The notes beneath the pieces were generated by a model. That model had not been told where the DNA came from. It did no database searches and saw only the letters and a list, made by a program, of their open reading frames with translations. Below are positions 19,509 to 32,000 of a stretch of DNA of 32,000 nucleotides, one piece after another; position 1 is the first letter of the stretch; the number at the start of each line of letters is the position of its first letter. The stretch is from Candidatus Brocadia sp. WS118. Lineage in GTDB: Bacteria > Planctomycetota > Brocadiia > Brocadiales > Brocadiaceae. The position numbers and the translations under genes were made by a program. The DNA is taken from positions 516 through 32,515 of the forward strand of contig PHFX01000170.1 in NCBI GenBank assembly GCA_007618135.1, written 5' to 3'.

Positions 19509-19531
19509 AAAAGCAGCGATTGGGTAATGGT

Positions 19532-21997
19532 ATGATTGGTATCCGCACAAAACTTATGCTTTTTACGAGTACCCTGGTAATTATGATTAGCACCCTGAGT
19601 TGCCTCTTCTTTTTAATTCATGCAAAAAGGCAGGAGGAGGAGGCTCTGAAAAATTTTGGTATGTCACTGATCATGCTGCTCGCTCAGGATAATGAAGTGA
19701 GATATGCTATGACGTACACCCAACCTGCATTTCTTGACACCCCTGTTAAAAGGATACGAGCGCTTGACCGGGAAGAGGAACTCGGATACCTGCGTATATC
19801 AAATATCCAAAAAACCCTGATCGAAGAAAAGGCGACCTGGATGAATATCGATATGAAAGAAATTCCCACCCAAAAAGGGAGAGAAAACCAGGATGTACTC
19901 CTTACCGATTGTACGCTTGCTTGTTCACGGAAGGTATTTTACGATTTTTCTCTGGCGGTGGCTGCGGAATCGACTTTCTCTGAAGAAGCATTTGCTGCCC
20001 AGGTTCTTGAAGAAATCAAGATGAATACACAACAGCAACCTTTGGGTTTTATACAAATCGGTTTATCTTCTCATAAATTGAGTAAGAGGATTCACGAGAT
20101 TTTTTGGAAGAGTATTATTCCGCTGGGTTTAATTATTATTTCCGGCGGAATAAGTATTACCATTTTCCTTACGAAGTACCTTGTTTCACCGTTACGGCAA
20201 ATGGCTGATGTCACCCTTGATATTGCCAAAGGTGATCTCACCCGTACCGTGGATGTCCAGTCACAGGATGAAATGGGGCAATTGTCGGTGAATTTCAACA
20301 AGATGACCCGGTCGCTGAAGAAGTCGTATGACGATCTGAAGCAAGAAATTGCAGATCGCAGGAGGGCTGAGGAATTATTAGCGTTTCGGGTAAAAATCGA
20401 AGGACTTATTACTGCCATATCGGCAAACTTTATTAATCTTCCATCTACTGAAGTTGATGCAGGCATACATCGTGCCTTGAAACAGATCGGGGAGTTTTCT
20501 GGTGTTGACCGCAGTTATGTCTTTCTTAATTCAGATGGGGGAAAGAGGATGGATAACACCCACGAGTGGTGCGCCAGGGGGATTCAGTCACAAAAAGAGA
20601 ACCTTCAGGGGGTGCTCGTTGAGCAGTTTCCTTGGGGCATGGAAAAGCTCAGGCGATTCGAAACGATCCATATCCCCAGGGTCAATGACCTGCCGGATGA
20701 CGCAATGACCGAGAGAGCACTGCAGCAATCGCAACAAGTGCAGTCGTGCGTAATCGTTCCCATGATTTATGGTGGATCATTGTTTGGGCTTTTGGGGTTT
20801 GATTCGGTACGAAGAGAGAAAACCTGGACACATGAAGACATTGGGATGTTAAAAATAGTAGCGGAAATATTTGTTAATGCCTTAGAGCACAAACGCATGG
20901 AAGAGGCGCTCCGCATAAGCGAAGGAAAGTATAGAATGCTGCTTGAAAACCTTCCACAGAGGATATTTTACAAGGATGAAAATTTACGGTATGTATCGTG
21001 TAATGAGAATTATGCCAGGGATTTGAAGATTCATACGGATGAAATACAAGGAAAGACGGATTATGACTTTTATCCAGAGGTGCTCGCGGAAAAATACCGC
21101 TCGGATGACAAACGAATCATGAGATTGGAAAAAACAGAAGAAATAGAAGAGAAATATATTAACAACGGACAAGAGCTGACTGTCCATACGGTGAAAACCC
21201 CCATAAAAGATGAGAAAGGAAGTGTTATTGGGGTATTAGGTATTTTCTGGGACATCACCGAGAAAATAGCCTTGCAGACGGAGGCTATACGGTCTAGGCA
21301 TCTGGTATCAGTAGGTGAACTTGCGGCAGGTGTGGCTCACGAAATTAACAATCCCATAACGGGTATTATCAACTGTGCCCAGATACTGGTAAATAAAAGT
21401 GAAAAGGGAACCAGAGAGGAGGACATTGGCCATCGAATTGTAAAAGAAGGAAACCGGATAGCTGATATCGTAAAGAGTCTCCTCTCCTTTGCCAGGCCGG
21501 GTGACAGAAAAGAACAAAGGGTTTCAGTCCATGTCTCTGAAATTATGTCTGATACACTTGTTCTGATGGGTTCACAGTTGAAAAAGGATAATGTTGAATT
21601 GGTTTTAAACATTCCCCCCGAATTGTCAAAGGTAAGTGCGCACCATCAGCAAATTCAACAGGTCTTTTTAAATTTGATAAGTAATGCACGATACGCCTTG
21701 AATTCTAAATACCCGGGAAGGAATGAGAATAAAATTCTTGAGATTCGGGGTGAATCGATAACCATTAATAATCGCCCCTATGTGAAAGTTACTTTTCATG
21801 ATAAAGGTACTGGAATATCTGCAGATATTCTGGATAAGGTTATGAATCCATTTTTTTCCACGAAACCAAGAGGGACGGGCACTGGGCTTGGCTTGAGCAT
21901 CAGTCACGGCATTGTAAATGATCATGGCGGTAAACTCCTGATAGATTCTGTTGAAAATGAATTTACGAAGGTTACGGTTGTGCTGCCGTCAGGGTAA
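19532..21997 (+). CDS. Sensor histidine kinase (2 TM + extracytoplasmic domain, HAMP, GAF, PAS, HisKA, HATPase_c)
   Basis: H-box AAGVAHEINNPITGI, N-box LNLISNARYAL, and G-boxes DKGTGI and GTGLGLSISHGIV. The HAMP domain follows TM2 (LVSPLRQMADVTLDIAKGDLT). The PAS domain includes GVLGIFWDITEK. TTG 19520 is an alternative start. Confidence 0.88.
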   Translation: MIGIRTKLMLFTSTLVIMISTLSCLFFLIHAKRQEEEALKNFGMSLIMLLAQDNEVRYAMTYTQPAFLDTPVKRIRALDREEELGYLRISNIQKTLIEEKATWMNIDMKEIPTQKGRENQDVLLTDCTLACSRKVFYDFSLAVAAESTFSEEAFAAQVLEEIKMNTQQQPLGFIQIGLSSHKLSKRIHEIFWKSIIPLGLIIISGGISITIFLTKYLVSPLRQMADVTLDIAKGDLTRTVDVQSQDEMGQLSVNFNKMTRSLKKSYDDLKQEIADRRRAEELLAFRVKIEGLITAISANFINLPSTEVDAGIHRALKQIGEFSGVDRSYVFLNSDGGKRMDNTHEWCARGIQSQKENLQGVLVEQFPWGMEKLRRFETIHIPRVNDLPDDAMTERALQQSQQVQSCVIVPMIYGGSLFGLLGFDSVRREKTWTHEDIGMLKIVAEIFVNALEHKRMEEALRISEGKYRMLLENLPQRIFYKDENLRYVSCNENYARDLKIHTDEIQGKTDYDFYPEVLAEKYRSDDKRIMRLEKTEEIEEKYINNGQELTVHTVKTPIKDEKGSVIGVLGIFWDITEKIALQTEAIRSRHLVSVGELAAGVAHEINNPITGIINCAQILVNKSEKGTREEDIGHRIVKEGNRIADIVKSLLSFARPGDRKEQRVSVHVSEIMSDTLVLMGSQLKKDNVELVLNIPPELSKVSAHHQQIQQVFLNLISNARYALNSKYPGRNENKILEIRGESITINNRPYVKVTFHDKGTGISADILDKVMNPFFSTKPRGTGTGLGLSISHGIVNDHGGKLLIDSVENEFTKVTVVLPSG

Positions 21998-22120
21998 GGG
22001 TTTTGACAGAGATGGGAAAAGGCGTCTCTGATGCAAAGTTTAATCATGATGTCTTTGGCCTATCCTTCTTACGATAATGGAATGCCAATTGCTTTTGTCG
22101 TAGATAGGAAAGAGGGAAAG

Positions 22121-23833
22121 ATGAAGAAAAAAATTCTTATAATCGACGATGAAGAGAATATCAGGTACACCTTTGAAAGCTTTCTTACAGACGAGGGATA
22201 TGAGGTGGCATCTGCAAAGGACTATAGGGATGCTCTCGTCGCGATTGATGAGGCAGATTTTGATGTGATATTTACCGATATTCTCTTGGGTGATAAGAGT
22301 GGTGTTGATATCCTGAGAAACATTAAAGAAAAGAATCTCAATTGTCCCGTTGTTATGATCACCGGTGCCCCTGATATTGGAACTGCCTCGGAAGCTCTGC
22401 GGTTGGGTGCCTTTGACTATATTCCTAAACCTATATTGCAGGACACTTTGGTGCGTGTTGCAAAGGTGGCATTACAGCATAAAACTCTCAAAGACGAAAA
22501 GGAGAGATACCAAACAAACCTTGACGCAATATTTCGAAGTGTAAGGGATGCAATTATTACGGTGGATAAGAATTTAATGGTAGTCGAGATGAATCCTGCG
22601 GCTGAACAAATCTGTGATCTGTCTCATAATGTCATTGGAAATCTCCTCAACTCTTTTCAGACACATTGTGGTGGAAAGTGTTTTGAAATTCTTCGTGCAA
22701 CCATTGAAGAAAAACAACCTCTGGAAATACCAAGTCTTGAATGCAGGCATAACCATCGCCCGCATCAGGTTGTGAGCATCTCAACCAATCCTCTCTTAAA
22801 CAATAAAGGTATGTTTTCAGGCGCTGTTTTGGTGGTAAGAGATGATACGCATTTGGTTGAACTAGAGCGCGATATGAAAGAGCGGCGTAAATTCCATAAT
22901 ATGATAGGGAAGAGTGAGAAGATACAGATGATTTACTCGTTTATAGAAGATTTGGCAGACGTCCAGACGACAGTCCTGGTGCTAGGGGAAAGCGGGACGG
23001 GTAAGGAACTGGTTGCCGAAGCAATCCACTACAGCGGTGCACGCAGTAAAAAACCGCTGGTCAAGGTAAACTGCTCGGCTTTATCAGAGAATCTGCTTGA
23101 AAGTGAGCTCTTTGGGCACGTAAAGGGCGCTTTTACCGGCGCTCTACAGAATAGGATTGGCAGGTTTCAGAAAGCTGAAGGAGGCACGATTTTTCTGGAT
23201 GAAATTGGCGACATCTCTCCGCGGATACAACTCCAACTGCTGAGGGTTTTGCAGGAAAGAGAATTTGAGCGCGTTGGAGACTCAAACCCCATCAAGGTCG
23301 ATGTTCGGGTTATTGCCGCGACTAATCAAAACCTTCGCGAAAAAGTCAAGCGGGGCGAGTTCCGCGAAGACCTTTATTACCGGCTCAAGGTAGTGGAAAT
23401 GTGCCTGCCGCCGCTAAGAGACAGGAAAGAAGACATACCGTTGCTGGTAAAGCACTTTGTGAAAAAATTCAATAAAAAGTTAAATAAAGAGATTACTGCC
23501 ATTTCTGCGGATGTCCAGAAGATATTTATGAACTACACATGGCCGGGAAATATCCGGGAATTGGAACATACTATGGAGCATGCATTTATTCTTTGCCACC
23601 AAAACGTCATTACGGCGGATCACCTGCCCCTCAATTTTAAAGACCTTAATCAAACGAATAAGACTTCTTCTGAAGATACAAAAATTGAAGAATCGCAGTC
23701 AATTATTCGGGCACTTGAGCTGGCTTTATGGAATAAAGCAAAAGCTGCACGCCTGTTAGGCATGAGCCGAAGGACGCTCTACCGGAAAATAAGAGACCTT
23801 AAAATAGGCGTGAAGGATGATTCCAGAATATAA
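22121..23833 (+). CDS. Sigma-54-dependent response regulator (REC-PAS-AAA+ bEBP-Fis HTH)
   Basis: REC domain KKILIIDDEENI...DVIFTDILL. PAS domain between REC and AAA+. Walker A GESGTGKE. GAFTGA loop (VKGAFTGA). FLDEIGD. C-terminal HTH AARLLGMSRRTLYRKI. I chose ATG 22121, which is preceded by GAGGGAAAG, rather than the track start at 22031. Confidence 0.9.
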   Translation: MKKKILIIDDEENIRYTFESFLTDEGYEVASAKDYRDALVAIDEADFDVIFTDILLGDKSGVDILRNIKEKNLNCPVVMITGAPDIGTASEALRLGAFDYIPKPILQDTLVRVAKVALQHKTLKDEKERYQTNLDAIFRSVRDAIITVDKNLMVVEMNPAAEQICDLSHNVIGNLLNSFQTHCGGKCFEILRATIEEKQPLEIPSLECRHNHRPHQVVSISTNPLLNNKGMFSGAVLVVRDDTHLVELERDMKERRKFHNMIGKSEKIQMIYSFIEDLADVQTTVLVLGESGTGKELVAEAIHYSGARSKKPLVKVNCSALSENLLESELFGHVKGAFTGALQNRIGRFQKAEGGTIFLDEIGDISPRIQLQLLRVLQEREFERVGDSNPIKVDVRVIAATNQNLREKVKRGEFREDLYYRLKVVEMCLPPLRDRKEDIPLLVKHFVKKFNKKLNKEITAISADVQKIFMNYTWPGNIRELEHTMEHAFILCHQNVITADHLPLNFKDLNQTNKTSSEDTKIEESQSIIRALELALWNKAKAARLLGMSRRTLYRKIRDLKIGVKDDSRI

Positions 23834-23874
23834 GCGCCTATTGTCCCTTTGCTGCGACTTTCTTGGTTTTTTAT

Positions 23875-23934
23875 AAAAAAGTGTGCCATGTCACACTTTG
23901 TGACGTCACAAAGTGTGACATGGCACACTTTTTT
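23875..23934. terminator. 60-bp perfect palindrome flanked by an A6 run upstream and a T6 run downstream. It is a bidirectional intrinsic terminator and/or a protein-binding dyad array.
   Basis: AAAAAAGTGTGCCATGTCACACTTTGTGAC|GTCACAAAGTGTGACATGGCACACTTTTTT. I checked base by base that the arms are exact reverse complements. It starts 42 nt after the response-regulator stop. Confidence 0.65.
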
Positions 23935-24047
23935 ATTGTTTTCAAATAGATGCATTTCTATTAATTTTATTCCTTCCACGCATCTCGTAATAAAAATTCC
24001 GCAACAATTCAGGTTTTTTGAAACAACAAAATTATGTTTCAATTTTC

Positions 24048-24063
24048 TGGCATATGATTTGAC
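24048..24063 (+). promoter_or_regulatory. Candidate sigma-54 promoter (TGGCAT-N5-TTGA)
   Basis: The GG and TTG elements have the correct -24/-12 spacing. The -12 element reads GA rather than the consensus GC. It lies ~130-160 bp downstream of the palindrome dyads and ~215 nt upstream of the PAS ORF. Confidence 0.3.
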
Positions 24064-24277
24064 AGCCAGTAAAAAAGAATTATGGGGATGAAAATGTATG
24101 GGTAAATTTTCCATGTAAGGAAGGAGGAAAAGTATGAATATTTTTTTTGCCTTTTTAATAATCAGCATTGTGATTGCGATCACAACTATCGTGTTCTCGT
24201 AAGATTTGTGATTCTCATGGTCTCTAAAATATCAACGCGTACGTTGATTTTCATAATTTCGTTGGAGGGTTGCTCAA

Positions 24278-24670
24278 GTGGAGATGTCAAAGGTTGTTTA
24301 TAAATTGATGGAAAACGAGCTGATGAGGATATTGTTTTCTGGCGTAACCGATCTCACCTATATTTATGATGTGGAGGGAAATATCTTATTTGTAAATAAA
24401 GTATTTGAAAAATTTACGGGTCACAGGCCTGAGGAGTTTTACGGGAAACCATTTGCAACTCTTTTTGACAAGGAAAATTTAAAAAAGGCGCAGGACGCCT
24501 TTGCGGAGACATTGAAAGGAAATAGTCCGGAATACGAGCTTTATTTCCGGAATACAAAGGTGTTGTGTGAGTATAGGAACTTTCCGTTAAAGGATCAAAG
24601 CGGAAATCTTGTTGGCATAATGGGTATAGCCAGGGATATCACTGCCCGACGCAAGATAAGGAGTAGCTGA
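24278..24670 (+). CDS. Stand-alone PAS domain protein, apparently the surviving N-terminal part of a longer signalling gene
   Basis: 130 aa with a PAS fold pattern (ILFVNKVFEKFTGHRPEEFYGKPF...GIMGIARDITARRK). The ORF ends just after the DIT..R PAS boundary, where multidomain proteins normally continue. GTG 24278 or ATG 24284 may be the start. Confidence 0.6.
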   Translation: MEMSKVVYKLMENELMRILFSGVTDLTYIYDVEGNILFVNKVFEKFTGHRPEEFYGKPFATLFDKENLKKAQDAFAETLKGNSPEYELYFRNTKVLCEYRNFPLKDQSGNLVGIMGIARDITARRKIRSS

Positions 24671-24883
24671 AGGCACTGAATGAATCTATGGAGATAAGGG
24701 TGATTGAACATACCTCAAGACTGATGGAGCTAAATGAAGAGTTGGTGAAGGAAATGAAGGAAAGAGTATGACTCGAAAGGGAATTAAAGCAAGGTATGGA
24801 GAAACAAAAAATCCTTAACGGGGATGATTCAGACTATGTCCCTGACCGTTGAATCAAGAGAACCTCATTCTGCTCTTCGTTAG
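24652..24883 (+). pseudogene. Decayed continuation of the PAS gene: a coiled-coil linker plus the start of an HD-GYP-like domain, broken by frameshifts and stop codons
   Basis: An alternative frame reads QDKE*LKALNESMEIRVIEHTSRLMELNEELVKEMKERV*LERELKQGMEKQKILNG. A third frame then reads MIQTMSLTVESREPHSALR*. Compare the consensus of HD-GYP domains, L.VE.RDPYT.GH. I recognised this by eye. Confidence 0.4.
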
Positions 24884-24904
24884 GTTTATCCTGGATGCCG
24901 TGAA

Positions 24905-25207
24905 ATGAAATATAAAATATCAGTCATCATTGTGGGAGGAGATCATTTAGGTAGCATACCAAAGGAGCTTGATAAAATCGGAATTACGGAAATTCAACAC
25001 CTGACAGGCAGGACCGGGCAGAAGATGCGAGGGAAAATCCCGGAGAAGGTTGATTTTATAATCCTCCTCTACGATTTCGTTAATCATAATCTGGCTTATA
25101 AAGTAAAGAAATTGGCTATTAACCGGAACATACCTATTATCTATGCAAAGAGATCGTGGTCTTCCATTTATCAAAAGATAAAGGATAGCCGGATAACTAT
25201 TTTCTGA
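24905..25207 (+). CDS. DUF2325 domain protein
   Basis: 100 aa. The pattern VIIVGGDHLG...HLTGR...KIPEKVDFIILLYDFVNHNLAYKVKKLA...PIIY matches my recollection of the DUF2325 family. Confidence 0.65.
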   Translation: MKYKISVIIVGGDHLGSIPKELDKIGITEIQHLTGRTGQKMRGKIPEKVDFIILLYDFVNHNLAYKVKKLAINRNIPIIYAKRSWSSIYQKIKDSRITIF

Positions 25208-25508: not shown

Positions 25509-25895
25509 ATGTATGTTGGTATTGACATTATAGAAATAAAACGCATCGAAAAATTGTTCTCTGCTCATGAGGATTTCTTACGAAGGATTTATACAAAAAA
25601 AGAGGTAGAGTATTGCAACCAAAAAAAGAACAAATATCAACATTTTGCGGCTCGTTTTGCCTCAAAAGAGGCAATGTTCAAGGCGCTGGGAACTGGCTGG
25701 GTTGGTAAAATGAAATGGACGGATATTGAGCTCTTAAATGACGAAAAAGGGAGACCCTATGTGAATCTCTATGGCGGGGTAAAAGAATTGGCAGATAAGA
25801 AACATATCGATAATATTTCTGTATCTTTATCCCACTGCCAGGACTATGCTATTGCCCAGGTTTTGTTGGTGCCAAAAAAAGAGGAATGTTCATGA
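25509..25895 (+). CDS. acpS: Holo-[acyl-carrier-protein] synthase (4'-phosphopantetheinyl transferase, AcpS type)
   Basis: 128 aa with GIDIIEIKRIEK, FAARFASKEAMFKALGTG and ISVSLSHCQDYAIAQVLL. Confidence 0.9.
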   Translation: MYVGIDIIEIKRIEKLFSAHEDFLRRIYTKKEVEYCNQKKNKYQHFAARFASKEAMFKALGTGWVGKMKWTDIELLNDEKGRPYVNLYGGVKELADKKHIDNISVSLSHCQDYAIAQVLLVPKKEECS

Positions 25896-27373
25896 AAAGA
25901 CTTGTATTAATCAATCCACATCCGATTGGAAATGTTGGAGAGGAAAATGTCTCGGTATTAAATCAAATGCCGGTGAATCTCGGCTATCTGAAGGTGTTAA
26001 CGCCAAAACACTGGCAGGCTGACATCATCGATGAAACCCAGGAACTTGCCATTGATGAAAATACCGGGGATATTACGTTTGGGGGAGCAGACCTGGTTGG
26101 CATTACCTCGGTGAGTTATCAGGCGAATCGGGCATATCAAATAGCTACTGCCTGCAGGAAACGGGGTATTCCCGTGATTATGGGCGGTATCCATGCAACA
26201 AGTTACCCGGAAGAAGCGTCAAAATACGTAGACTGCGTTGTGACCAGAGAAGCGGTAACTACGTGGGAAAAGATTATTGGCGACTTTGAAAAAGGCTGTC
26301 TCCAGAAAAGATACGATGGTGTTCTGACACCGATGGAGCTATATCAGGGATTGCGCCCGGATAGAAAATATTTGAAGGATAAATATAAATACCGTTATTC
26401 AGGTATCATAACTACTGCCGGGTGTCCTTTTAGCTGTGAGTTCTGTTCTGTGCCTCAGTTTCAGGGCAGGAAATACCGTGAAAGGCCCATCGAAGACGTC
26501 CTTGATGAATTCGAATCCATTAAGGGTCAATATCGCGGGCTGATCCTGACGGATGAAAATTTTTACGGACACAGCAAAAAATCCAACGAGCGCGTTCGGG
26601 ACCTTTTCAAAGGCATGGTGGAAAGGGGTATTTACCAGAACTGGTTCGGGTTTACCTCGCTCAATATCTATAAGGATGATGAAACCCTTGAATACATGAA
26701 AAAGAGCGGTTGCGTTGGAGTGCTCATTGGGATTGAATCCATCAATGAAGAGGCATTGAAGACGATGAACAAGAACGTAAATTTGCGCATCTCCATCGAA
26801 AATTATTTTGAGGCTATAGCCAATATCCGTAAACACGGTCTTGCCGTGTGGGGGACGATGGTCTTTGGAAACGATGCCGATACCCCGGAGACCTTTAAGC
26901 AGGTTGCTGATTTTGTCCTTGATTCACAGGTCGATATCATGACCTGCGGCATTTTGTGCCCGTTCATTAATACGCCGCTGTATCACCGGCTGAATGGCGA
27001 AGGAAGGCTTTTCAGAACAAAATTTCCGGAGGACTGGAAGTATTACACATCGCATCATCTCACCTATGTCCTGAAAAACATGTCCCTTCAGGAACTCATC
27101 GATGGATTTCAATATCTGTACGACAGGATTTATGCCACCGAGGTATTGCGGCAGAGATTCCAGAATGCGAAAGAGGTGCTGAAAGATAATATGAATGCCG
27201 CCATGTTTGCCTTCAGGGTCAATCTTGATTGGCAGTCCGTTTACCAGCATCTGATTCAAAATCTTAAAGAATTGCAGACATCAGGGTTCTATGATGAGGC
27301 ATTAAAACGATATAACCAATCGAAAAAAGCCGGGAAAAAGGTGGAATTGACACCGATTGAGGTGTCATCTTAA
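25892..27373 (+). CDS. B12-binding (class B) radical SAM protein with a DUF4070-like C-terminal region
   Basis: The N-terminal cobalamin-binding-type Rossmann domain reads DLVGITSVSYQANRAYQIATACRKRGIPVIMGGIHAT. The radical SAM cluster motif is AGCPFSCEFCSV (CxxxCxxC). The ATG at 25892 overlaps the acpS TGA (ATGA) and is preceded by AAGAGGAA. ATG 25886 is an alternative start. Confidence 0.88.
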   Translation: MKRLVLINPHPIGNVGEENVSVLNQMPVNLGYLKVLTPKHWQADIIDETQELAIDENTGDITFGGADLVGITSVSYQANRAYQIATACRKRGIPVIMGGIHATSYPEEASKYVDCVVTREAVTTWEKIIGDFEKGCLQKRYDGVLTPMELYQGLRPDRKYLKDKYKYRYSGIITTAGCPFSCEFCSVPQFQGRKYRERPIEDVLDEFESIKGQYRGLILTDENFYGHSKKSNERVRDLFKGMVERGIYQNWFGFTSLNIYKDDETLEYMKKSGCVGVLIGIESINEEALKTMNKNVNLRISIENYFEAIANIRKHGLAVWGTMVFGNDADTPETFKQVADFVLDSQVDIMTCGILCPFINTPLYHRLNGEGRLFRTKFPEDWKYYTSHHLTYVLKNMSLQELIDGFQYLYDRIYATEVLRQRFQNAKEVLKDNMNAAMFAFRVNLDWQSVYQHLIQNLKELQTSGFYDEALKRYNQSKKAGKKVELTPIEVSS

Positions 27374-27562: not shown

Positions 27563-27635
27563 ACAGCCGGGTAGGTTAGATTAAGAAATAGTTTGATGGA
27601 TTCGGCGTAAAAACCAAATTGTATAGGCTTTTCAG

Positions 27636-27691
27636 TTTATTTAAGCGGTTTTTTGGGTGGCATGAATAAACCCTGCTTGTCTGCGTTTAAC
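27636..27691 (+). repeat. REP-like dispersed element, copy c
   Basis: The 27-nt block TTTATTTAAGCGGTTTTTTGGGTGGCA is identical to 29270-29296. The downstream half is degenerate and the hairpin is not well conserved. It ends in GTTTAAC, as copy a does. Confidence 0.75.
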
Positions 27692-27721: not shown

Positions 27722-27826
27722 TCCCCTCTTGGGAGGGGTTGGGGGTGGGTACCTTGATCGTGAAAATCAGTGAATATCTCACGAATTACCGGCTTACCCG
27801 CCCCTAAATCCCCTCCCAAGAGGGGA
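27722..27826. repeat. MITE-like unit: ~30-bp imperfect terminal inverted repeats (TCCCCTCTTGGGAGGGGTTGGGGGTGGGT ... ACCCGCCCCTAAATCCCCTCCCAAGAGGGGA) flanking 45 bp
   Basis: The arms at 27722-27750 and 27796-27826 are near reverse complements. Each arm also contains its own hairpin, CCCCTC-loop-GAGGGG. No coding capacity is present. Confidence 0.6.
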
Positions 27827-27850: not shown

Positions 27851-29062
27851 ATGTCAAAGGTCGTAATTACAGGGTTAGGATTGGTCACACCCGTCGGGGT
27901 TGGCGTCAGGCAAAGCTGGGAATCGTTCATCCAGGGCAGGAACGGCGCCAACGAGATGAAGTCCTTCGACACCTCAAAATATAAGGTGCATCGTTCCTGT
28001 GAAGCAAAAAATTTCCAATGGGACTTTGAACTAAAGAATCAGATCAAAGAAAACACGATCCATAAATATGTCTATTGCGCAGCCAGGGAGGCGCTCCAGG
28101 AAAGTGGTTTATTGCATGATAAGAAATTCAACCGGGAGCGATTTGGTATTGCCATAGGAACCTTGGCCGCCGAGTTGACGCCGTTTGAGAGACTCTTGCG
28201 ATTAGACACCTCGAAAAAAGACAACGGTTTCGATAAAATCGTTGCTGCCGTTTACCCGCCCAATTCGATCACCAATATCCTGTCTAAAAATTTTGATTTT
28301 GAAGGTCCCACCATGATCTCGCTGAACGCCTGCTCGTCCGGCAACCACGCCATTGCATGGGCATATGACCGCCTTGTGGATAATAAGGTTGATGTAGTAA
28401 TGGTCGGTGGAGGCGACATGATCCCTCAAACGGAATTTACCCACTTTCATAACCTCAAGGCCTTAGCGCCCGAACGTTGTCAACCCTTCGACAAAAACCG
28501 TCAGGGACTTATGATTGGCGAAGGGGCAGGGATATTGATTATGGAACGCTATGAGTTTGCCAAAAAACGCGGTGCAGCGATTATTGCTGAGATGGTGGGT
28601 TATGGGTTGAGCTGCGATGGATTTCATATGACGGCGCCCCATCCAGAAGGTGACGGGGCGGTAAAGTGCATGAGCGATGCGCTAAAAATGGCAAACATTT
28701 CTTCTGCTGATATCGGTTACATCAACGCACATGGCACAGGAACCCCGCACAATGACAAGACCGAAACAACCGCTATAAAACGCGTATTTGGCGAAGGTGC
28801 ATATAGGATTCCCTGCAGTTCCACCAAATCGATGATTGGCCACCTCATGGGCGCAGCCAGCGCTGTGGAATCAGTTGTCTGCTGTCTGGTATTGAGACAT
28901 GGAGTAGTTCCTCCGACAATTAATTACGAAATCCCCGATCCGGAATGCGATCTCGATTACGTACCCAATGCAGCGCGTGAGGTAAAAGTGGATCACGCAT
29001 TAAATAATTCCTTCGCCTTCGGCGGAAACAATGCAACTACAATATTTAGTAGGATGGGTTAA
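27851..29062 (+). CDS. Beta-ketoacyl-ACP synthase, KAS I/II (FabF/FabB-like), catalytically intact
   Basis: 403 aa from MSKVVITGLG. The active-site Cys is in LNACSSGNHAI. The catalytic His residues are in GFHMTAPHP and INAHGTGTPHND. It also has STKSMIGHLMGAAS and FAFGGNNA. The track start at 27770 runs through a repeat element, so I rejected it. Confidence 0.88.
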   Translation: MSKVVITGLGLVTPVGVGVRQSWESFIQGRNGANEMKSFDTSKYKVHRSCEAKNFQWDFELKNQIKENTIHKYVYCAAREALQESGLLHDKKFNRERFGIAIGTLAAELTPFERLLRLDTSKKDNGFDKIVAAVYPPNSITNILSKNFDFEGPTMISLNACSSGNHAIAWAYDRLVDNKVDVVMVGGGDMIPQTEFTHFHNLKALAPERCQPFDKNRQGLMIGEGAGILIMERYEFAKKRGAAIIAEMVGYGLSCDGFHMTAPHPEGDGAVKCMSDALKMANISSADIGYINAHGTGTPHNDKTETTAIKRVFGEGAYRIPCSSTKSMIGHLMGAASAVESVVCCLVLRHGVVPPTINYEIPDPECDLDYVPNAAREVKVDHALNNSFAFGGNNATTIFSRMG

Positions 29063-29269
29063 ACATGTCCTGAGCTTGCCGAATGGACGAAGCAAACCTC
29101 AAGACTGGTTATCAATCTTGCAGATTGAACCATATATTTGAACGTTACTCTAAAGCGTGAACTTGTGCATTGAGACGGAATTATACCAAATGTTTTGGTT
29201 CAATCGAGGACGAATGAACCAGCAAAGACCAGCAAAGGGACGATTGTTCCGGCAAAGAGGAATCTTCAT

Positions 29270-29323
29270 TTTATTTAAGCGGTTTTTTGGGTGGCACGGA
29301 CAAACTTTGTTCGTCCGTGTTTT
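29270..29323 (+). repeat. REP-like dispersed element, copy d, with a terminator-like hairpin (CACGGACAAAC-TTT-GTTCGTCCGTG + TTTT)
   Basis: A 27-nt block is identical to copy c. It is followed by an 11-bp stem with one A-C mismatch, a 3-nt loop and a T4 run. The element ends 12 nt before the KS2 ATG. Confidence 0.75.
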
Positions 29324-29335
29324 GTCGGGTATGCA

Positions 29336-30571
29336 ATGAAAAAACGAGTCGTTATAACCGGTTTAGGTGTCGTATCCCCTCTGGGATGCGGAAAAGAGGC
29401 ATTCTGGAACAATCTTCTTGATGGAAAATCTGGCATTGCACCGATGTCAACCCTCGACCTCTCTCCGTATAAATGTAAATTGGGAGGCGAAGTGAGGGAC
29501 CTTAAACCGGAGGTATATCTTGGCAGTAAAGGCTTAAAATATCTAAACAAGGGCACACGCTTTCTGGGGTCTGCTGCTAAGATGGCAATTGACGATGCAA
29601 GGCTTCCTACGGACGGTTCCCTGTCGGAACAGATGGGCATTGTCATCGGTTCATCCCTGGGCAATTTTTCTGAGACAACGGATTATTTTTATGAAATCAT
29701 CAGGAACAATCCCTCTGAACTATCTCCCATGCTCAGCTATGACGTTGCCTTGAATTCTTCCATTAATTACGTATCGGTCATCTTTAAAATCAAGGGACTT
29801 GCCCGCACGGTATCTGCGGGTTTCACGTCAAGTACCGATGCCATTGGAGATGCGTATAAAATGATTCAGCGGGATATGGCACAGGTAATCGTGGCGGGTG
29901 GTGTCGAGCAGATATCCATTGATCTGTATCTCATATTTTACCTGCGCGGTTTGTTGTCCGGTCTTGATGGCACACAAGAGGCGAGCCTGCCCTTTGATAA
30001 GGAGAGAAACGGTTTTGTCATGGCAGAAGGCAGTTACGTGGTCATCCTGGAAGAATTCCAGCATGCCCTGGACAGGGGCGCTCATATCTATGCGGAGGTA
30101 AAGGGATTTGGGAATACCTTCGTGGGTGGCAAAGACCATCCGGCAGAGGTACGTATGTGTCGTGCCGAAAAGGCAATGCGTGAGGCACTGGAAGATGCTG
30201 AAGTAAAGAAAGAAGACGTTGACTTCATCAGTGCAAATGCAAATGGATGCAAGATGCAGGACGCAATCGAGGCGAAGGCAATCCAATCGTTATTCGGCGC
30301 AGGGAGCATTCGTATTCCCGTATCTGCAATAAAATCGAACATTGGCGAATCGTACGGAACCGCCGGTGCTGCCCAGCTCATTTCATCAATCATGTCGATA
30401 AACACAGGTAAAATACCGCACATCATGAATCACACTAAAAAAGATCAGACAATAAATTTGAATCTCATCATAGACAAACCACTCAAAAAAGAAATCCAGA
30501 ATACGTTAATAAATACCATGGATTATGATGGGAATAATTCATGTCTGGTAGTGAGCAGGTTATGCAAATAG
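29336..30571 (+). CDS. Ketosynthase-fold paralogue lacking the Cys-His-His triad (chain-length-factor-like or 'dead' KS partner)
   Basis: 411 aa from MKKRVVITGLG. A position-by-position alignment to the upstream KS gives NACSSGNHAI vs AGFTSSTDAI (Cys->Phe), GFHMTAP vs GGKDHPA (His->Lys) and NAHGTGT vs SANANGC (His->Asn). The fold motifs are retained (PFDKERNGFVMAEG, IKSNIGES). Confidence 0.85.
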   Translation: MKKRVVITGLGVVSPLGCGKEAFWNNLLDGKSGIAPMSTLDLSPYKCKLGGEVRDLKPEVYLGSKGLKYLNKGTRFLGSAAKMAIDDARLPTDGSLSEQMGIVIGSSLGNFSETTDYFYEIIRNNPSELSPMLSYDVALNSSINYVSVIFKIKGLARTVSAGFTSSTDAIGDAYKMIQRDMAQVIVAGGVEQISIDLYLIFYLRGLLSGLDGTQEASLPFDKERNGFVMAEGSYVVILEEFQHALDRGAHIYAEVKGFGNTFVGGKDHPAEVRMCRAEKAMREALEDAEVKKEDVDFISANANGCKMQDAIEAKAIQSLFGAGSIRIPVSAIKSNIGESYGTAGAAQLISSIMSINTGKIPHIMNHTKKDQTINLNLIIDKPLKKEIQNTLINTMDYDGNNSCLVVSRLCK

Positions 30572-30579
30572 TATAATGC

Positions 30580-31158
30580 TTATTGAGTGTGTTTTATCTG
30601 ATATATATTATGGGCAACGTCTGGAATGATAGCGTAATCAGCTTTGATTCCGCATTCATTCAGTAAATATTCTAAGCCCAGCGCGGAGCCCCGTTCTTCA
30701 TCCGCAACCCCTGCCAAAAGAAATTGTCCTTTCAGAAACCTTGCAACGGCCATCATGGAGGCCATCTGCCCTTTGTTGTCTGAAGAGCCCCTGCCATAGA
30801 TTCTGCCATCTTCTCTCCATGCCTCAAAGGGATTCCTCTCCCAGTTCCAGTCGTCGCCTGCCGGCACAACGTCTAAATGACATGCAACCAGCAATGCGGG
30901 GGCGGACGGCTGTTTGTCCCTGCCTCCAATATATCCGATGATATTTGTCCGATCCTTCGTTTTTTCAAAGAGTTCATAGGGAATCTGGAGTGATTGAAAG
31001 AAATCCGCAACAACTCGCGCTGCAAGGATTTCATTTCCTGGAGGATTTTCGGTCTTTGTATTGATTAATTTGCATGCAAGATCGACGATCTCCTTTTCTT
31101 CACCTCTCAGGTATTTGCCAATAAACTCCCTGAGATTGTTTGACGTATCGTATTTCAT
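30580..31158 (-). pseudogene. Truncated M20-family metallopeptidase (ArgE/DapE/CPG2-like), N-terminal catalytic half only
   Basis: 192 aa with HLDVVPAGDDW, GRIYGRGSSDNKGQMAS and GVADEERGS. The homology stops after ADYAIIPD, at about 180 aa. The dimerisation domain and C-terminal half that are typical of ~380-aa M20 enzymes are absent. Its stop codon lies 8 nt from the convergent KS2 stop. Confidence 0.65.
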
Positions 31159-31373
31159 AGCAGTTGCACCGAAGATCTGAAATTTACGGCAAGTAAAGTA
31201 AAAATTGTGATAATATTAGCGAACAACAGGAGGGATTTCAAATTAAATCATTGATAAAAATTATAAATACTTATAAAATTATCCTGTTCATGGGAGATTT
31301 CATATGCAAAGAAAATGCCGTTCCTATAGGACTCATTTATACGATAACCTTTTTAAGTTAAGGTTGATTATGT

Positions 31374-32000
31374 ATGGGAAGTAATTTTTTACTGCCCCTT
31401 TCGCGTACAGAGGAATCTTTAATATCTGAGCTTAGGTCTTCTTTTCTTGTTTTACCCTCTCAGTTATCTGTTGAATCTGCCTGGTTGAAGAATCTGAGTC
31501 GTTTGAAGAATCTTGTTCTTAATAATGACCCTCGATTTTTTTTACGTTGGGATATTATTATAAAAACCATGTTTATTCCTGATGCGGTTTATACGCCTGT
31601 TGAGTTGAGTTATTTATTGTGTCTTTCTGACTTTGCTTCTCGGTGGTGTTCTGCTATTAAAGAGTCGCCTTTTGGCTCTCCTGCCCTCTCCAAATATTAT
31701 CCAGATAGCAGTGGTAATCTCATACATCATGCTTATCATCTTGCTCAATTTGAGTCTCTTTATAAGACTCAGGTTAATGGCATGAATTTTGTTTTAGAGT
31801 TTGGAGGTGGTTACGGTAGTATGTGCCGATTGTATTATAATCTTGGTTTCTCTGGTCGTTATATAATCTTTGATTTGCCTGAATTATCTGCTTTGCAGAG
31901 GTATTATCTTAAATCTCTTGGTTTGCCTGTTTTGTCTGTTGCCGATTTTGTGAAGGGAGATGAGGGGGTATTATGTGTTTCTGATATGCATCAGTTGTCT
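31374..32000 (+). CDS. Class I SAM-dependent methyltransferase-like protein (partial, runs off the window end)
   Basis: I translated this open frame by hand from ATG 31374 to the window edge (209 codons, no stop). It has a GxGxG-type motif LEFGGGYGSMCR, followed by IIFDLPE (the acidic residue at the end of beta-2). It resembles putative sugar O-methyltransferases. It is absent from the ORF track because it has no stop codon. Confidence 0.55.
   Translation, partial: MGSNFLLPLSRTEESLISELRSSFLVLPSQLSVESAWLKNLSRLKNLVLNNDPRFFLRWDIIIKTMFIPDAVYTPVELSYLLCLSDFASRWCSAIKESPFGSPALSKYYPDSSGNLIHHAYHLAQFESLYKTQVNGMNFVLEFGGGYGSMCRLYYNLGFSGRYIIFDLPELSALQRYYLKSLGLPVLSVADFVKGDEGVLCVSDMHQLS

Follow-up and report, generated by a model that had tools for sequence, protein, structure and literature searches.

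Background

Among the bacteria that carry out anammox, ketosynthases (KS) of the FabF type occur side by side with homologs that have lost their catalytic residues, and we describe here one such pair, KS1 and KS2, encoded in a 32,000-nucleotide (nt) chromosomal stretch of Candidatus Brocadia sp. WS118 (contig PHFX01000170.1, positions 516 to 32,515; hereafter the window). The described protein that KS2 most resembles is Kuste2805 of Kuenenia stuttgartiensis, for which Rattray et al. 2009 (PMC2649909) tabulated, in the numbering of Escherichia coli FabB, the residues Phe163, Asn298, Asn300, Cys302, Lys328, Glu333 and Gln342, listing with it a Geobacter paralog that also has Phe163. Kuste2805 was subsequently termed a “non-canonical FabB” (Javidpour et al. 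2016, PMC4790861) and included in a phyletic-pattern figure of ladderane-related genes (Liao et al. 2022).

A paralogous pair, amxFabF2 and amxFabFmut (kuste3606 type), is encoded by Cluster I (kuste3603-3608) and was studied by Granatino et al. 2026 (10.64898/2026.05.19.726425), a preprint that makes no mention of kuste2804 or kuste2805. The two proteins are inactive alone and co-purify; together they decarboxylate malonyl-acyl carrier protein (ACP) and form acetoacetyl-ACP, and they crystallize as a heterodimer (PDB 9s5h/9s5i). In 9s5h a helix-loop-helix of amxFabFmut (residues 110-140) lines the tunnel of the active subunit, with Phe135, Thr138 and Val139 constricting it near C8; Phe135 and Val139 influence the chain-length preference, which is lost in the F135G/V139G mutant. 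The same authors numbered the triad residues of B. fulgida amxFabF2 Cys165, His298 and His335 and its gate residue Phe394, and reported Iga11 as amxFabF2's nearest homolog in structure and B. subtilis FabF as the nearest structural neighbor of amxFabFmut (10.64898/2026.05.19.726425).

Further parallels are offered by the chain-length factor (CLF) of actinorhodin biosynthesis (1tqy_B), an inactive KS paralog beside an active KS that forms an obligate heterodimer with it and sets the size of the tunnel; by the ishigamide proteins Iga11 and Iga12 (6kxd-f), a heterodimer of a KS and a dead partner working on reduced, fatty-acid-like chains; and by ApeO/ApeC of the aryl-polyene clusters, a KS/CLF-type heterodimer in a type II system resembling fatty-acid synthesis (FAS). 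We propose that KS2 is probably a non-catalytic, tunnel-shaping, CLF-like subunit of a KS1-KS2 heterodimer.

The active site of KS2

KS1 and KS2 are 28% identical in BLASTP, and two Pfam ketosynthase domains are present in each. An earlier note on this DNA had reported that KS2 has lost all three catalytic residues; its coordinates and the peptides it quoted are correct, and both the open reading frame (ORF) and its ATG at 29336 are confirmed. The ORF as called runs from a GTG (29291-30571), and the ATG backed by the orthologs gives a protein beginning MKKRVVITGLG; for KS1 the ORF finder gives a GTG at 27770 and the orthologs support an ATG at 27851. The triad was mapped by concordant BLASTP of KS1 against KS2, HMMER alignment to B. 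subtilis FabF (4ls5), a MAFFT alignment of B. subtilis FabF, TtFabF, 9s5h_B and 9s5h_C, and published residue numbers.

Phe163 falls on the nucleophile Cys by BLASTP, HMMER and MAFFT alike, as the note had it. Asn301 does take the place of a catalytic His in three alignments, although of the first one, in the AHGTGT motif, and not of the second as had been stated. The proposed exchange of the remaining His for Lys does not survive: it pairs DGFHMTAP of KS1 with GGKDHPA of KS2 at Lys266, in a non-catalytic loop outside the triad. We take this loop to be one of the FabF gating loops, at which E. coli FabB would have an Asp and not a His. The residue that had been overlooked is Glu338, which occupies the second His position in the KSxxGH motif. 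That the AHGTGT and KSxxGH motifs are the real His sites follows from two sources that match both of them, namely the spacing in the table of Rattray et al. (His298-x-Thr300-x-Thr302, Lys328...His333; PMC2649909) and the amxFabF2 numbering, which on the 9s5h_B sequence picks out a C in TAC, an H in AHGTGT, an H in MMGH and an F in AFGG. All three triad residues of KS2 are lost, then, as F/N/E and not as F/K/N: on the aligned sequences the change is Cys to Phe163, His to Asn301 and His to Glu338, with the catalytic-site Lys kept as Lys333.

This set (F163/N301/N303/C305/K333/E338/Q347) matches the published table for Kuste2805 residue for residue, and the two genes stand in the same cluster of acpS, a B12 radical SAM (S-adenosylmethionine) gene, a fabF and a non-canonical KS (kuste2802-2805). 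Based on synteny and residue pattern we identify the window cluster as the ortholog of K. stuttgartiensis kuste2802-2805, the differences being the genus (Kuenenia versus Brocadia) and the gate residue, which is Phe392 in Kuste2805 and Tyr397 in KS2. The loss of the triad together with the Phe was therefore already published in 2009 for the ortholog Kuste2805, and there is nothing new in the finding as first stated.

Nor does the wider family bear out the notion that a Phe combined with the loss of both His residues is a radical remodeling of the pocket. In 71 triad-less domains from the nearest representatives many different residues stand at the nucleophile position (F, M, I, V, T, E, Q, G and others), Phe being the commonest of them (20/71 domains; 18/39 stand-alone proteins); a variable, mostly hydrophobic residue in place of the Cys fits a space-filling role. 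Lys and Glu at the Lys and second His positions are found together in 46 of the 71 domains, and the near universality of this pair points to a structural salt bridge; in KS2, Lys333 and Glu338 may form one. Classical CLFs have a Gln at the Cys position, in contrast to KS2, whose Phe163 is present in all 156 orthologs examined (120 listed clusters and 36 loci, described below). The further assertion that classical CLFs replace only the Cys is mistaken, since ActB and Iga12 are also without the typical triad (10.64898/2026.05.19.726425).

Conservation and selection

Orthologous loci were gathered by scanning one genome per GTDB species, which gave 35 loci (36 with the window) from Brocadia, Jettenia, Loosdrechtia, Wunengus and Scalinduaceae, with no Kuenenia locus among them and nine of the 35 cut short or interrupted. 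A second set comprised 120 ortholog protein clusters, these being the matches listed, down to 76% identity. Among the matches listed, the nearest named relatives of KS2, at 76-90% identity, come from Brocadia, Jettenia and further members of the Brocadiaceae; a JGI metagenome has also yielded the identical KS2 protein.

In the 120 listed clusters Phe and Lys are retained in 120/120, Glu in 119/120 (Asp in one) and Asn in 118/120. The 36 genomic orthologs, five Scalinduaceae included, have F, K and E in 36/36 and N in 34/36, so that F/N/E with the retained Lys is essentially invariant across the anammox genera of the order Brocadiales, well outside anything that chance would produce. Two of the 120 listed clusters and two of the 36 loci have a His instead of the Asn at the first catalytic His position (ISAHANGC), with the Phe and Glu kept. 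Across the 36 genomic orthologs 120 of the 411 positions of KS2 are invariant, and no Cys or His is among them. This excludes a cryptic alternative Cys/His triad, and with it the possibility, raised in the earlier note, that a Cys and two His residues occupy the active site after all.

The other possibility raised there, a decaying pseudogene with frameshifts or stops, is likewise contradicted. The KS2 ORF is intact (408-414 amino acids, aa) in 35/35 orthologous loci, and the ratio of nonsynonymous to synonymous substitution rates (dN/dS; Nei-Gojobori, each ortholog against the window) is 0.08-0.12 where dS<1. Because of this ratio and the intact state of every ORF, KS2 is not a pseudogene; it is under clear purifying selection. 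KS1 gives a dN/dS of 0.05-0.10 in the same comparison and conserves its C/H/K/H/F residues in 29/29 orthologs, with KS2 evolving about 1.5-2 times faster. Between Scalinduaceae and Brocadiaceae the KS2 proteins are 57-59% identical.

Fold and family placement

An AlphaFold2 model of KS2 built on 57 diverse sequences has a predicted local distance difference test score (pLDDT) of 94.4 and a predicted TM-score (pTM) of 0.94; it was used in place of one built on nine close orthologs, for which the pLDDT was 29.9. A Foldseek search of the PDB with this model returned B. subtilis FabF as the best match (TM-score 0.94, root-mean-square deviation ~2.0 A), and KS2 is thus predicted with high confidence to keep the full FabF (thiolase) fold. 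The relation of the pair to 9s5h comes from sequence search, in which the best PDB match of KS2 is 9s5h_C (amxFabFmut; 4.4e-86) and that of KS1 is 9s5h_B (amxFabF2; 8.5e-125). KS1 passes the NCBIfam FabF subfamily NF005589 (413 bits, above the cutoff of 387), whereas KS2 misses all curated thresholds (325.6 bits to NF005589; 324 bits to TIGR03150, cutoff 493.75).

KS2 is closer to B. subtilis FabF (253 bits) than to the actinorhodin CLF (163 bits), with FabF also scoring above the actinorhodin KS. Based on this ranking KS2 is not a type II polyketide synthase (PKS) CLF by descent and has a separate origin within the FAS-type KSs. Furthermore, the window contains no gene for a PKS-type ACP, a cyclase or an aromatase. 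Iga11 is a strong PDB match of KS1 (1.5e-81); Iga12, on the other hand, is not among the 60 best PDB sequence matches of KS2, and the Iga pair belongs to a Streptomyces secondary-metabolism context. Set against ApeO/ApeC, KS2 is a full-length protein in which the two Pfam KS domains are both present.

Among proteins of solved structure the nearest likeness is to amxFabFmut, which shares with KS2 the full-length FabF fold, the lost triad and retained Lys, the replacement of the two His residues by Asn and Glu, a gene placed beside that of an intact KS within a cluster that includes a B12 radical SAM gene, and membership in one triad-less clade. It is nevertheless a paralog, being about 37-40% identical to the KS2-type proteins of loci L040 and L041, against the 76-90% seen among the Brocadiaceae orthologs listed, and it has Val or Thr at the Cys position where KS2 has Phe. 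Cluster I differs as well in containing an ACP, FabZ and a phytoene-desaturase-like gene, where the window cluster has acpS and a radical SAM gene of a different family.

Evidence for a partnership of KS1 and KS2

Under the model that we propose, KS1, with its working Cys-His-His-Lys site, would perform decarboxylative condensation on ACP-bound chains, and KS2 would contribute a helix-loop-helix (residues ~101-150) capping and shaping the acyl tunnel of KS1. The former active site of KS2 would be closed, with Phe163 replacing the nucleophile and Asn301 and Glu338 the histidines, and the B12 radical SAM enzyme encoded with the pair may take its product as substrate. We infer the physical heterodimer and the tunnel-shaping role from the paralogous amxFabF2/amxFabFmut pair, for which this general interpretation has already been published (10.64898/2026.05.19.726425). 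The constraint distribution, tunnel residues, phylogeny and fusion proteins set out below are new for KS1-KS2 and lend the partner model support at the level of sequence.

Residues 101-150 are the most conserved part of KS2, with 34 of 50 positions invariant versus 94 of 361 elsewhere (Fisher p=1.2e-8). KS1 has no such enrichment in the same columns, and conservation in KS2 falls far below that in KS1 from residue ~250 on, the region of the former catalytic loops. This peak of constraint, together with the relaxed C-terminal half, suggests that selection acts mainly on the interface and tunnel cap and not on the surroundings of the dead pocket. Within the segment, Ser134, Val137 and Ala138 of KS2 align with Phe135, Thr138 and Val139 of amxFabFmut and are invariant in 120/120 listed ortholog clusters. 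On the side of the active subunit, the tunnel residues Ala110, Ala164, Phe203, Met337 and Phe394 of amxFabF2 are all matched in KS1; Ile112, named in the preprint, could not be mapped, its column being Glu in both 9s5h_B and KS1. In light of the small KS2 residues at the constriction, the match of KS1 to amxFabF2 and the loss of preference in the paralog mutant, we predict for KS1-KS2 a roomier tunnel, one that takes longer or bulkier chains than the C6-C8 favored by the Cluster I heterodimer.

In a neighbor-joining tree (78 sequences, 100 bootstraps) KS1 groups with amxFabF2 (95%), and the 51 triad-less partners all come together in a single clade (75%). The KS1-type (100%) and KS2-type (92%) clades hold matching organisms, from which it would follow that an ancestral pair of KS and partner was duplicated and that the two pairs then co-diversified. 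Natural fusions give Rosetta-stone support for a physical association: in a representative library of 1.84 billion proteins we found about 30 of them (750-880 aa; P0123-P0256), each joining an N-terminal KS with the Cys-His-Lys-His (CHKH) residues to a C-terminal degenerate partner. The KS domain of one fusion, P0141, falls inside the KS1/amxFabF2 clade. The degenerate domains of the fusions show patterns such as YNKE, WSKE, MTKE, LGKE, QSKE and similar. Another candidate for a KS/dead-partner pair (P0337, locus L043) was dropped, since it consists of an ACP and a usual FabF bearing the CHKH triad. In five orthologous loci the stop of KS1 and the start of KS2 abut or overlap (gap of 0 or -4 nt), suggesting translational coupling. 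Taken together, the strong purifying selection, the strict pairing with an intact neighboring KS, the way conservation peaks in the helix-loop-helix and the KS-partner fusions make a non-catalytic, structural or tunnel-shaping partner of KS1, which the earlier note had also suggested, the best-supported reading of these sequences, even though the argument then offered for it was in part wrong or overstated.

Several observations weigh on the other side. The two genes are separated by 273 nt in the window, with a hairpin and T-run in the gap, and by 0.7-4.4 kb in some genomes, so that strict co-translation is not universal. When kuste2802-2805 were expressed in E. coli the protein was insoluble, and no lipid appeared that was new (Javidpour et al. 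2016, PMC4790861). A net-charge count over the helix-loop-helix and its partner helix did not reproduce the asymmetry of 9s5h even for the 9s5h chains themselves, although such a count is a crude proxy for electrostatic asymmetry and says nothing about KS1/KS2. Finally, the invariance of F, N, K and E could mean that the dead pocket has a function of its own. The expanded spacers of 0.4-4.5 kb in several loci (L008, L016, L018, L027, L029, L030 and L036), and a KS1 that appears as two overlapping pieces in L016, may stem from insertions or assembly problems; KS2 is intact in all the loci with expanded spacers.

A rival idea is that KS2 is itself an enzyme, its remodeled pocket of Phe163, Asn301, Asn303, Lys333 and Glu338 catalyzing a non-Claisen reaction or recruiting a non-FAS unit such as a pre-formed ladderane into fatty-acid synthesis, as Rattray et al. 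2009 (PMC2649909) had originally proposed. Retention of F, K and E, and very nearly of N, across anammox genera at 57-59% identity would suit such a role, as would the recurrence of the K-E pair in related triad-less domains. Yet KS2 has neither a nucleophile nor any invariant Cys or His, the residue at the Cys position varies freely in the wider partner family as expected of a space-filler, conservation is lowest in the C-terminal half, where the catalytic loops used to be, and the paralog amxFabFmut is inert alone, its authors rejecting a catalytic role. We accordingly regard an enzymatic KS2 as quite improbable. An origin as a decaying copy from a tandem duplication would account for the missing catalytic residues and the faster evolution relative to KS1, but it is refuted by the intact orthologous ORFs, the low dN/dS and the 120 invariant positions, to which the identity kept between the two families and the confidently predicted fold can be added; its likelihood is practically nil.

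Two further proposals concern what KS2 might bind. It could, with or without KS1, be a docking scaffold whose vestigial tunnel presents an ACP-tethered acyl chain to the B12 radical SAM enzyme, the conserved module then being radical SAM, KS and dead KS. Enzymes of this same family (49-70% identity) are encoded beside the KS1/KS2-type pairs in all anammox loci, as well as in a Blastocatellia genome and a metagenomic contig, and in 9s5h the dead subunit has a surface-open tunnel with polyethylene glycol bound and contacts ACP over ~300 A2. This evidence is one of context alone; the adjacency is explained equally well by a radical SAM enzyme acting on the released product of the heterodimer, and the dead-subunit tunnel in 9s5h was judged unlikely to be functional; we therefore consider a scaffold unlikely as the principal role, while noting that it is compatible with, and not exclusive of, the heterodimer. 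KS2 could also act apart from KS1 as a homodimer, for instance as an ACP-binding regulator or sequestering protein. Scalindua brodae amxFabFmut expressed alone did crystallize as a homodimer, the distance between KS1 and KS2 varies, and in the window an upstream element may belong to KS2 itself. In that homodimer, however, the helix-loop-helix is disordered and the protein inactive, whereas this is the segment that KS2 conserves best, pointing to a specific, ordered interface; moreover, KSs and their partners have diversified in parallel, and the two are also known as fusions. An independent KS2 homodimer thus strikes us as very improbable, and we retain the heterodimer partner as the preferred explanation.

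Genomic context

The two KS genes close a conserved four-gene cluster of acpS, the B12 radical SAM gene, KS1 and KS2 (Table 1). Wherever the contig extends, the gene order is kept in the orthologous loci, with acpS upstream in 25/35, the radical SAM gene in 28/35 and KS1 in 33/35; of the two loci in which no KS1 was seen, one contig ends 135 nt upstream and the other has none within 8 kb. The 10-nt overlap of acpS with the start of the radical SAM gene recurs in many anammox loci, the two genes lying ~100-670 nt apart elsewhere. Kuste2802 is the sole acpS listed for K. stuttgartiensis (Rattray et al. 2009, PMC2649909), and the first gene of this specialized operon thus appears to be an essential housekeeping gene. 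No ACP gene was found in the gaps of the cluster region of the window.

The radical SAM protein is the most conserved product of the cluster, with 75-97% identity across anammox loci and a dN/dS of 0.02-0.03. Its score against TIGR04072 (“rSAM_ladder_B12”) is only 81.9 bits, the cutoff being 360, and it falls short of every other curated family threshold as well; by these scores we assign it to a distinct, unnamed B12-radical SAM/DUF4070 family different from that of the Cluster I enzyme.

Table 1. Features of the KS1-KS2 locus, in positions of the window
Feature	Positions	Strand	Remarks
Histidine kinase (HAMP-GAF-PAS), sigma-54-dependent response regulator, small PAS protein, DUF2325 protein	19520-25207		upstream of acpS
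DUF2325 gene	24905-25207	+	
acpS (holo-ACP synthase)	25509-25895	+	PF01648 4.8e-20; TIGR00516 105 bits vs cutoff 59.8
B12-binding radical SAM gene, DUF4070 tail (kuste2803 type)	25886-27373	+	PF02310 + PF04055 + PF13282
58-nt direct repeat, copy 1	27631-27688	+	~160 nt upstream of KS1 start
KS1, catalytically intact FabF-type ketosynthase (kuste2804 type)	27851-29062	+	PF00109/PF02801
KS1 Cys161	28331-28333	+	
KS1 His294	28730-28732	+	
KS1 Lys326	28826-28828	+	
KS1 His331	28841-28843	+	
KS1 gate Phe390	29018-29020	+	
58-nt direct repeat, copy 2	29265-29322	+	ends 14 nt before KS2 ATG
Hairpin in repeat copy 2	29296-29314		followed by T-run
KS2, full-length triad-less FabF homolog (kuste2805 type), 411 aa	29336-30571	+	PF00109 + PF02801
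KS2 helix-loop-helix segment, residues 101-150	29636-29785	+	most conserved part of KS2
KS2 Phe163, Cys position	29822-29824	+	aligned to TAC*ATG Cys
KS2 Lys266	30131-30133	+	taken in the earlier note for the first His position
KS2 Asn301, first His position (AHGTGT motif)	30236-30238	+	INAHGTGT vs ISANANGC
KS2 Lys333, catalytic-site Lys retained	30332-30334	+	
KS2 Glu338, second His position (KSxxGH motif)	30347-30349	+	KS1 equivalent is His331 of KSMIGH
M20/ArgE-DapE-type peptidase gene, truncated	30580-31158	-	192 aa, profile positions 1-169 of 373
AT-rich, ORF-poor stretch	31160-32000		36% GC; after peptidase gene

The signaling genes upstream of acpS keep their order of kinase, regulator, PAS protein and DUF2325 protein in several Brocadia genomes (loci L003, L007, L011-L013 and L031). 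Apart from this two-component/sigma-54 system, the rest of the window holds housekeeping genes (RNase III, pheA, tpiA, secG, gmk, dut, ftsK, miaB-like, pgsA-like and others), and Rfam and tRNA scans of the whole window gave no matches.

Each KS gene is preceded by a copy of a 58-nt direct repeat. The copies are 83% identical and share an identical 27-nt core, TTTATTTAAGCGGTTTTTTGGGTGGCA, with 0 matches expected by chance; the second copy contains the hairpin and T-run mentioned above and recurs before KS2 in the Brocadia loci closest to the window (L001 and L002). The repeat may be a regulatory leader that was duplicated when KS1 and KS2 became separated in this lineage. Since a sigma-54 activator lies upstream, a sigma-54 promoter within the repeat was considered and rejected, as only the -24 half (TGGCACG) fits and a correctly spaced -12 TTGC is missing.

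Downstream of KS2, the truncated peptidase gene ends 9 nt after the KS2 stop codon and has no homolog at the corresponding place in the other 35 anammox loci; in B. pituitae KS2 is followed by an enoyl-CoA hydratase gene (~1 kb away), zwf and pgl. The flank from 30580 to 32000 has the look of a breakpoint in synteny, or of what is left of a gene, that is peculiar to this genome.

Related modules outside the anammox bacteria

We also observed related gene sets beyond the anammox bacteria. A Blastocatellia (Acidobacteriota) metagenome-assembled genome (MAG), GCA_035652355.1, and the JGI metagenome 3300005529 (loci L038/L039, 6799-13133) encode a KS1-like protein, a KS2-like protein and two B12 radical SAM proteins. 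The KS1-like protein is 49% identical to KS1, and the end of its gene overlaps the start of the gene for the KS2-like protein (39%, with the pattern F-S-K-E at the positions of Phe163, Asn301, Lys333 and Glu338); the radical SAM proteins, whose genes come next, are 58% and 51% identical to that of the window and belong to the same family. The module of KS1, KS2 and the radical SAM protein is hence not restricted to ladderane producers. In a collection of 5.8 billion proteins the KS2-like type of Blastocatellia has only about four close relatives, the next nearest being the anammox KS2 proteins, which suggests a sporadic distribution or horizontal transfer.

A metagenomic contig (L041; Logan SRR13254584, 1-12202) opens with a FabZ-like protein, proteins like amxFabF2 (64%) and amxFabFmut (56%, E-G-K-E) and a desaturase-like flavoprotein, and continues with three B12 radical SAM proteins (49-58%), a KS1-like protein (56%), a KS2-like protein (44%, F-A-K-E) and an enoyl-CoA hydratase. 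As a single contig, it physically links a Cluster I-like ladderane locus with a module like kuste2803-2805. A different arrangement is seen in another MAG (GCA_002428445.1, locus L042, 1-8218), where genes for an ACP, an amine-oxidase/desaturase-like protein, a PlsC-type acyltransferase and a B12 radical SAM protein (22% to that of the window) precede an ACP, a KS, a second KS (CHKH) and a partner with the pattern A-A-K-E and an overlapping start. This lipid-type locus resembles the Desulfotalea-type clusters discussed by Rattray et al. (PMC2649909).

A more speculative proposal, which we think has little chance of being correct, is that the selected unit is a three-part module of the B12 radical SAM protein, the active KS and the Phe-type dead KS, in which the invariant F-N-K-E pocket of KS2, with its tunnel, would be a working site and not just a plug, holding an ACP-tethered chain for radical C-C chemistry by the radical SAM enzyme. 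If this were true, the two KS/dead-KS pairs of anammox bacteria would divide the labor between short linear and bulky cyclized parts of ladderanes.

Implications

Of the condensing enzymes in candidate ladderane clusters, the Cluster I heterodimer, with its C6-C8 preference, is the only one that has been defined biochemically. KS1-KS2 constitutes a second pair of a KS and a dead KS, present in every anammox genome surveyed and predicted to be co-transcribed with acpS and the gene for a distinct B12 radical SAM protein; in the literature searched we found no biochemical test of it. The smaller KS2 residues at the tunnel constriction offer a testable hypothesis, namely that this pair elongates longer or bulkier intermediates. 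The occurrence of the module outside the anammox bacteria tempers the assumption that it is specific to ladderanes and at the same time offers a simpler host lineage in which its product might be found. Together, the differences in tunnel residues and the occurrences beyond anammox make the question of what KS1-KS2 and its radical SAM enzyme do a little more tractable.

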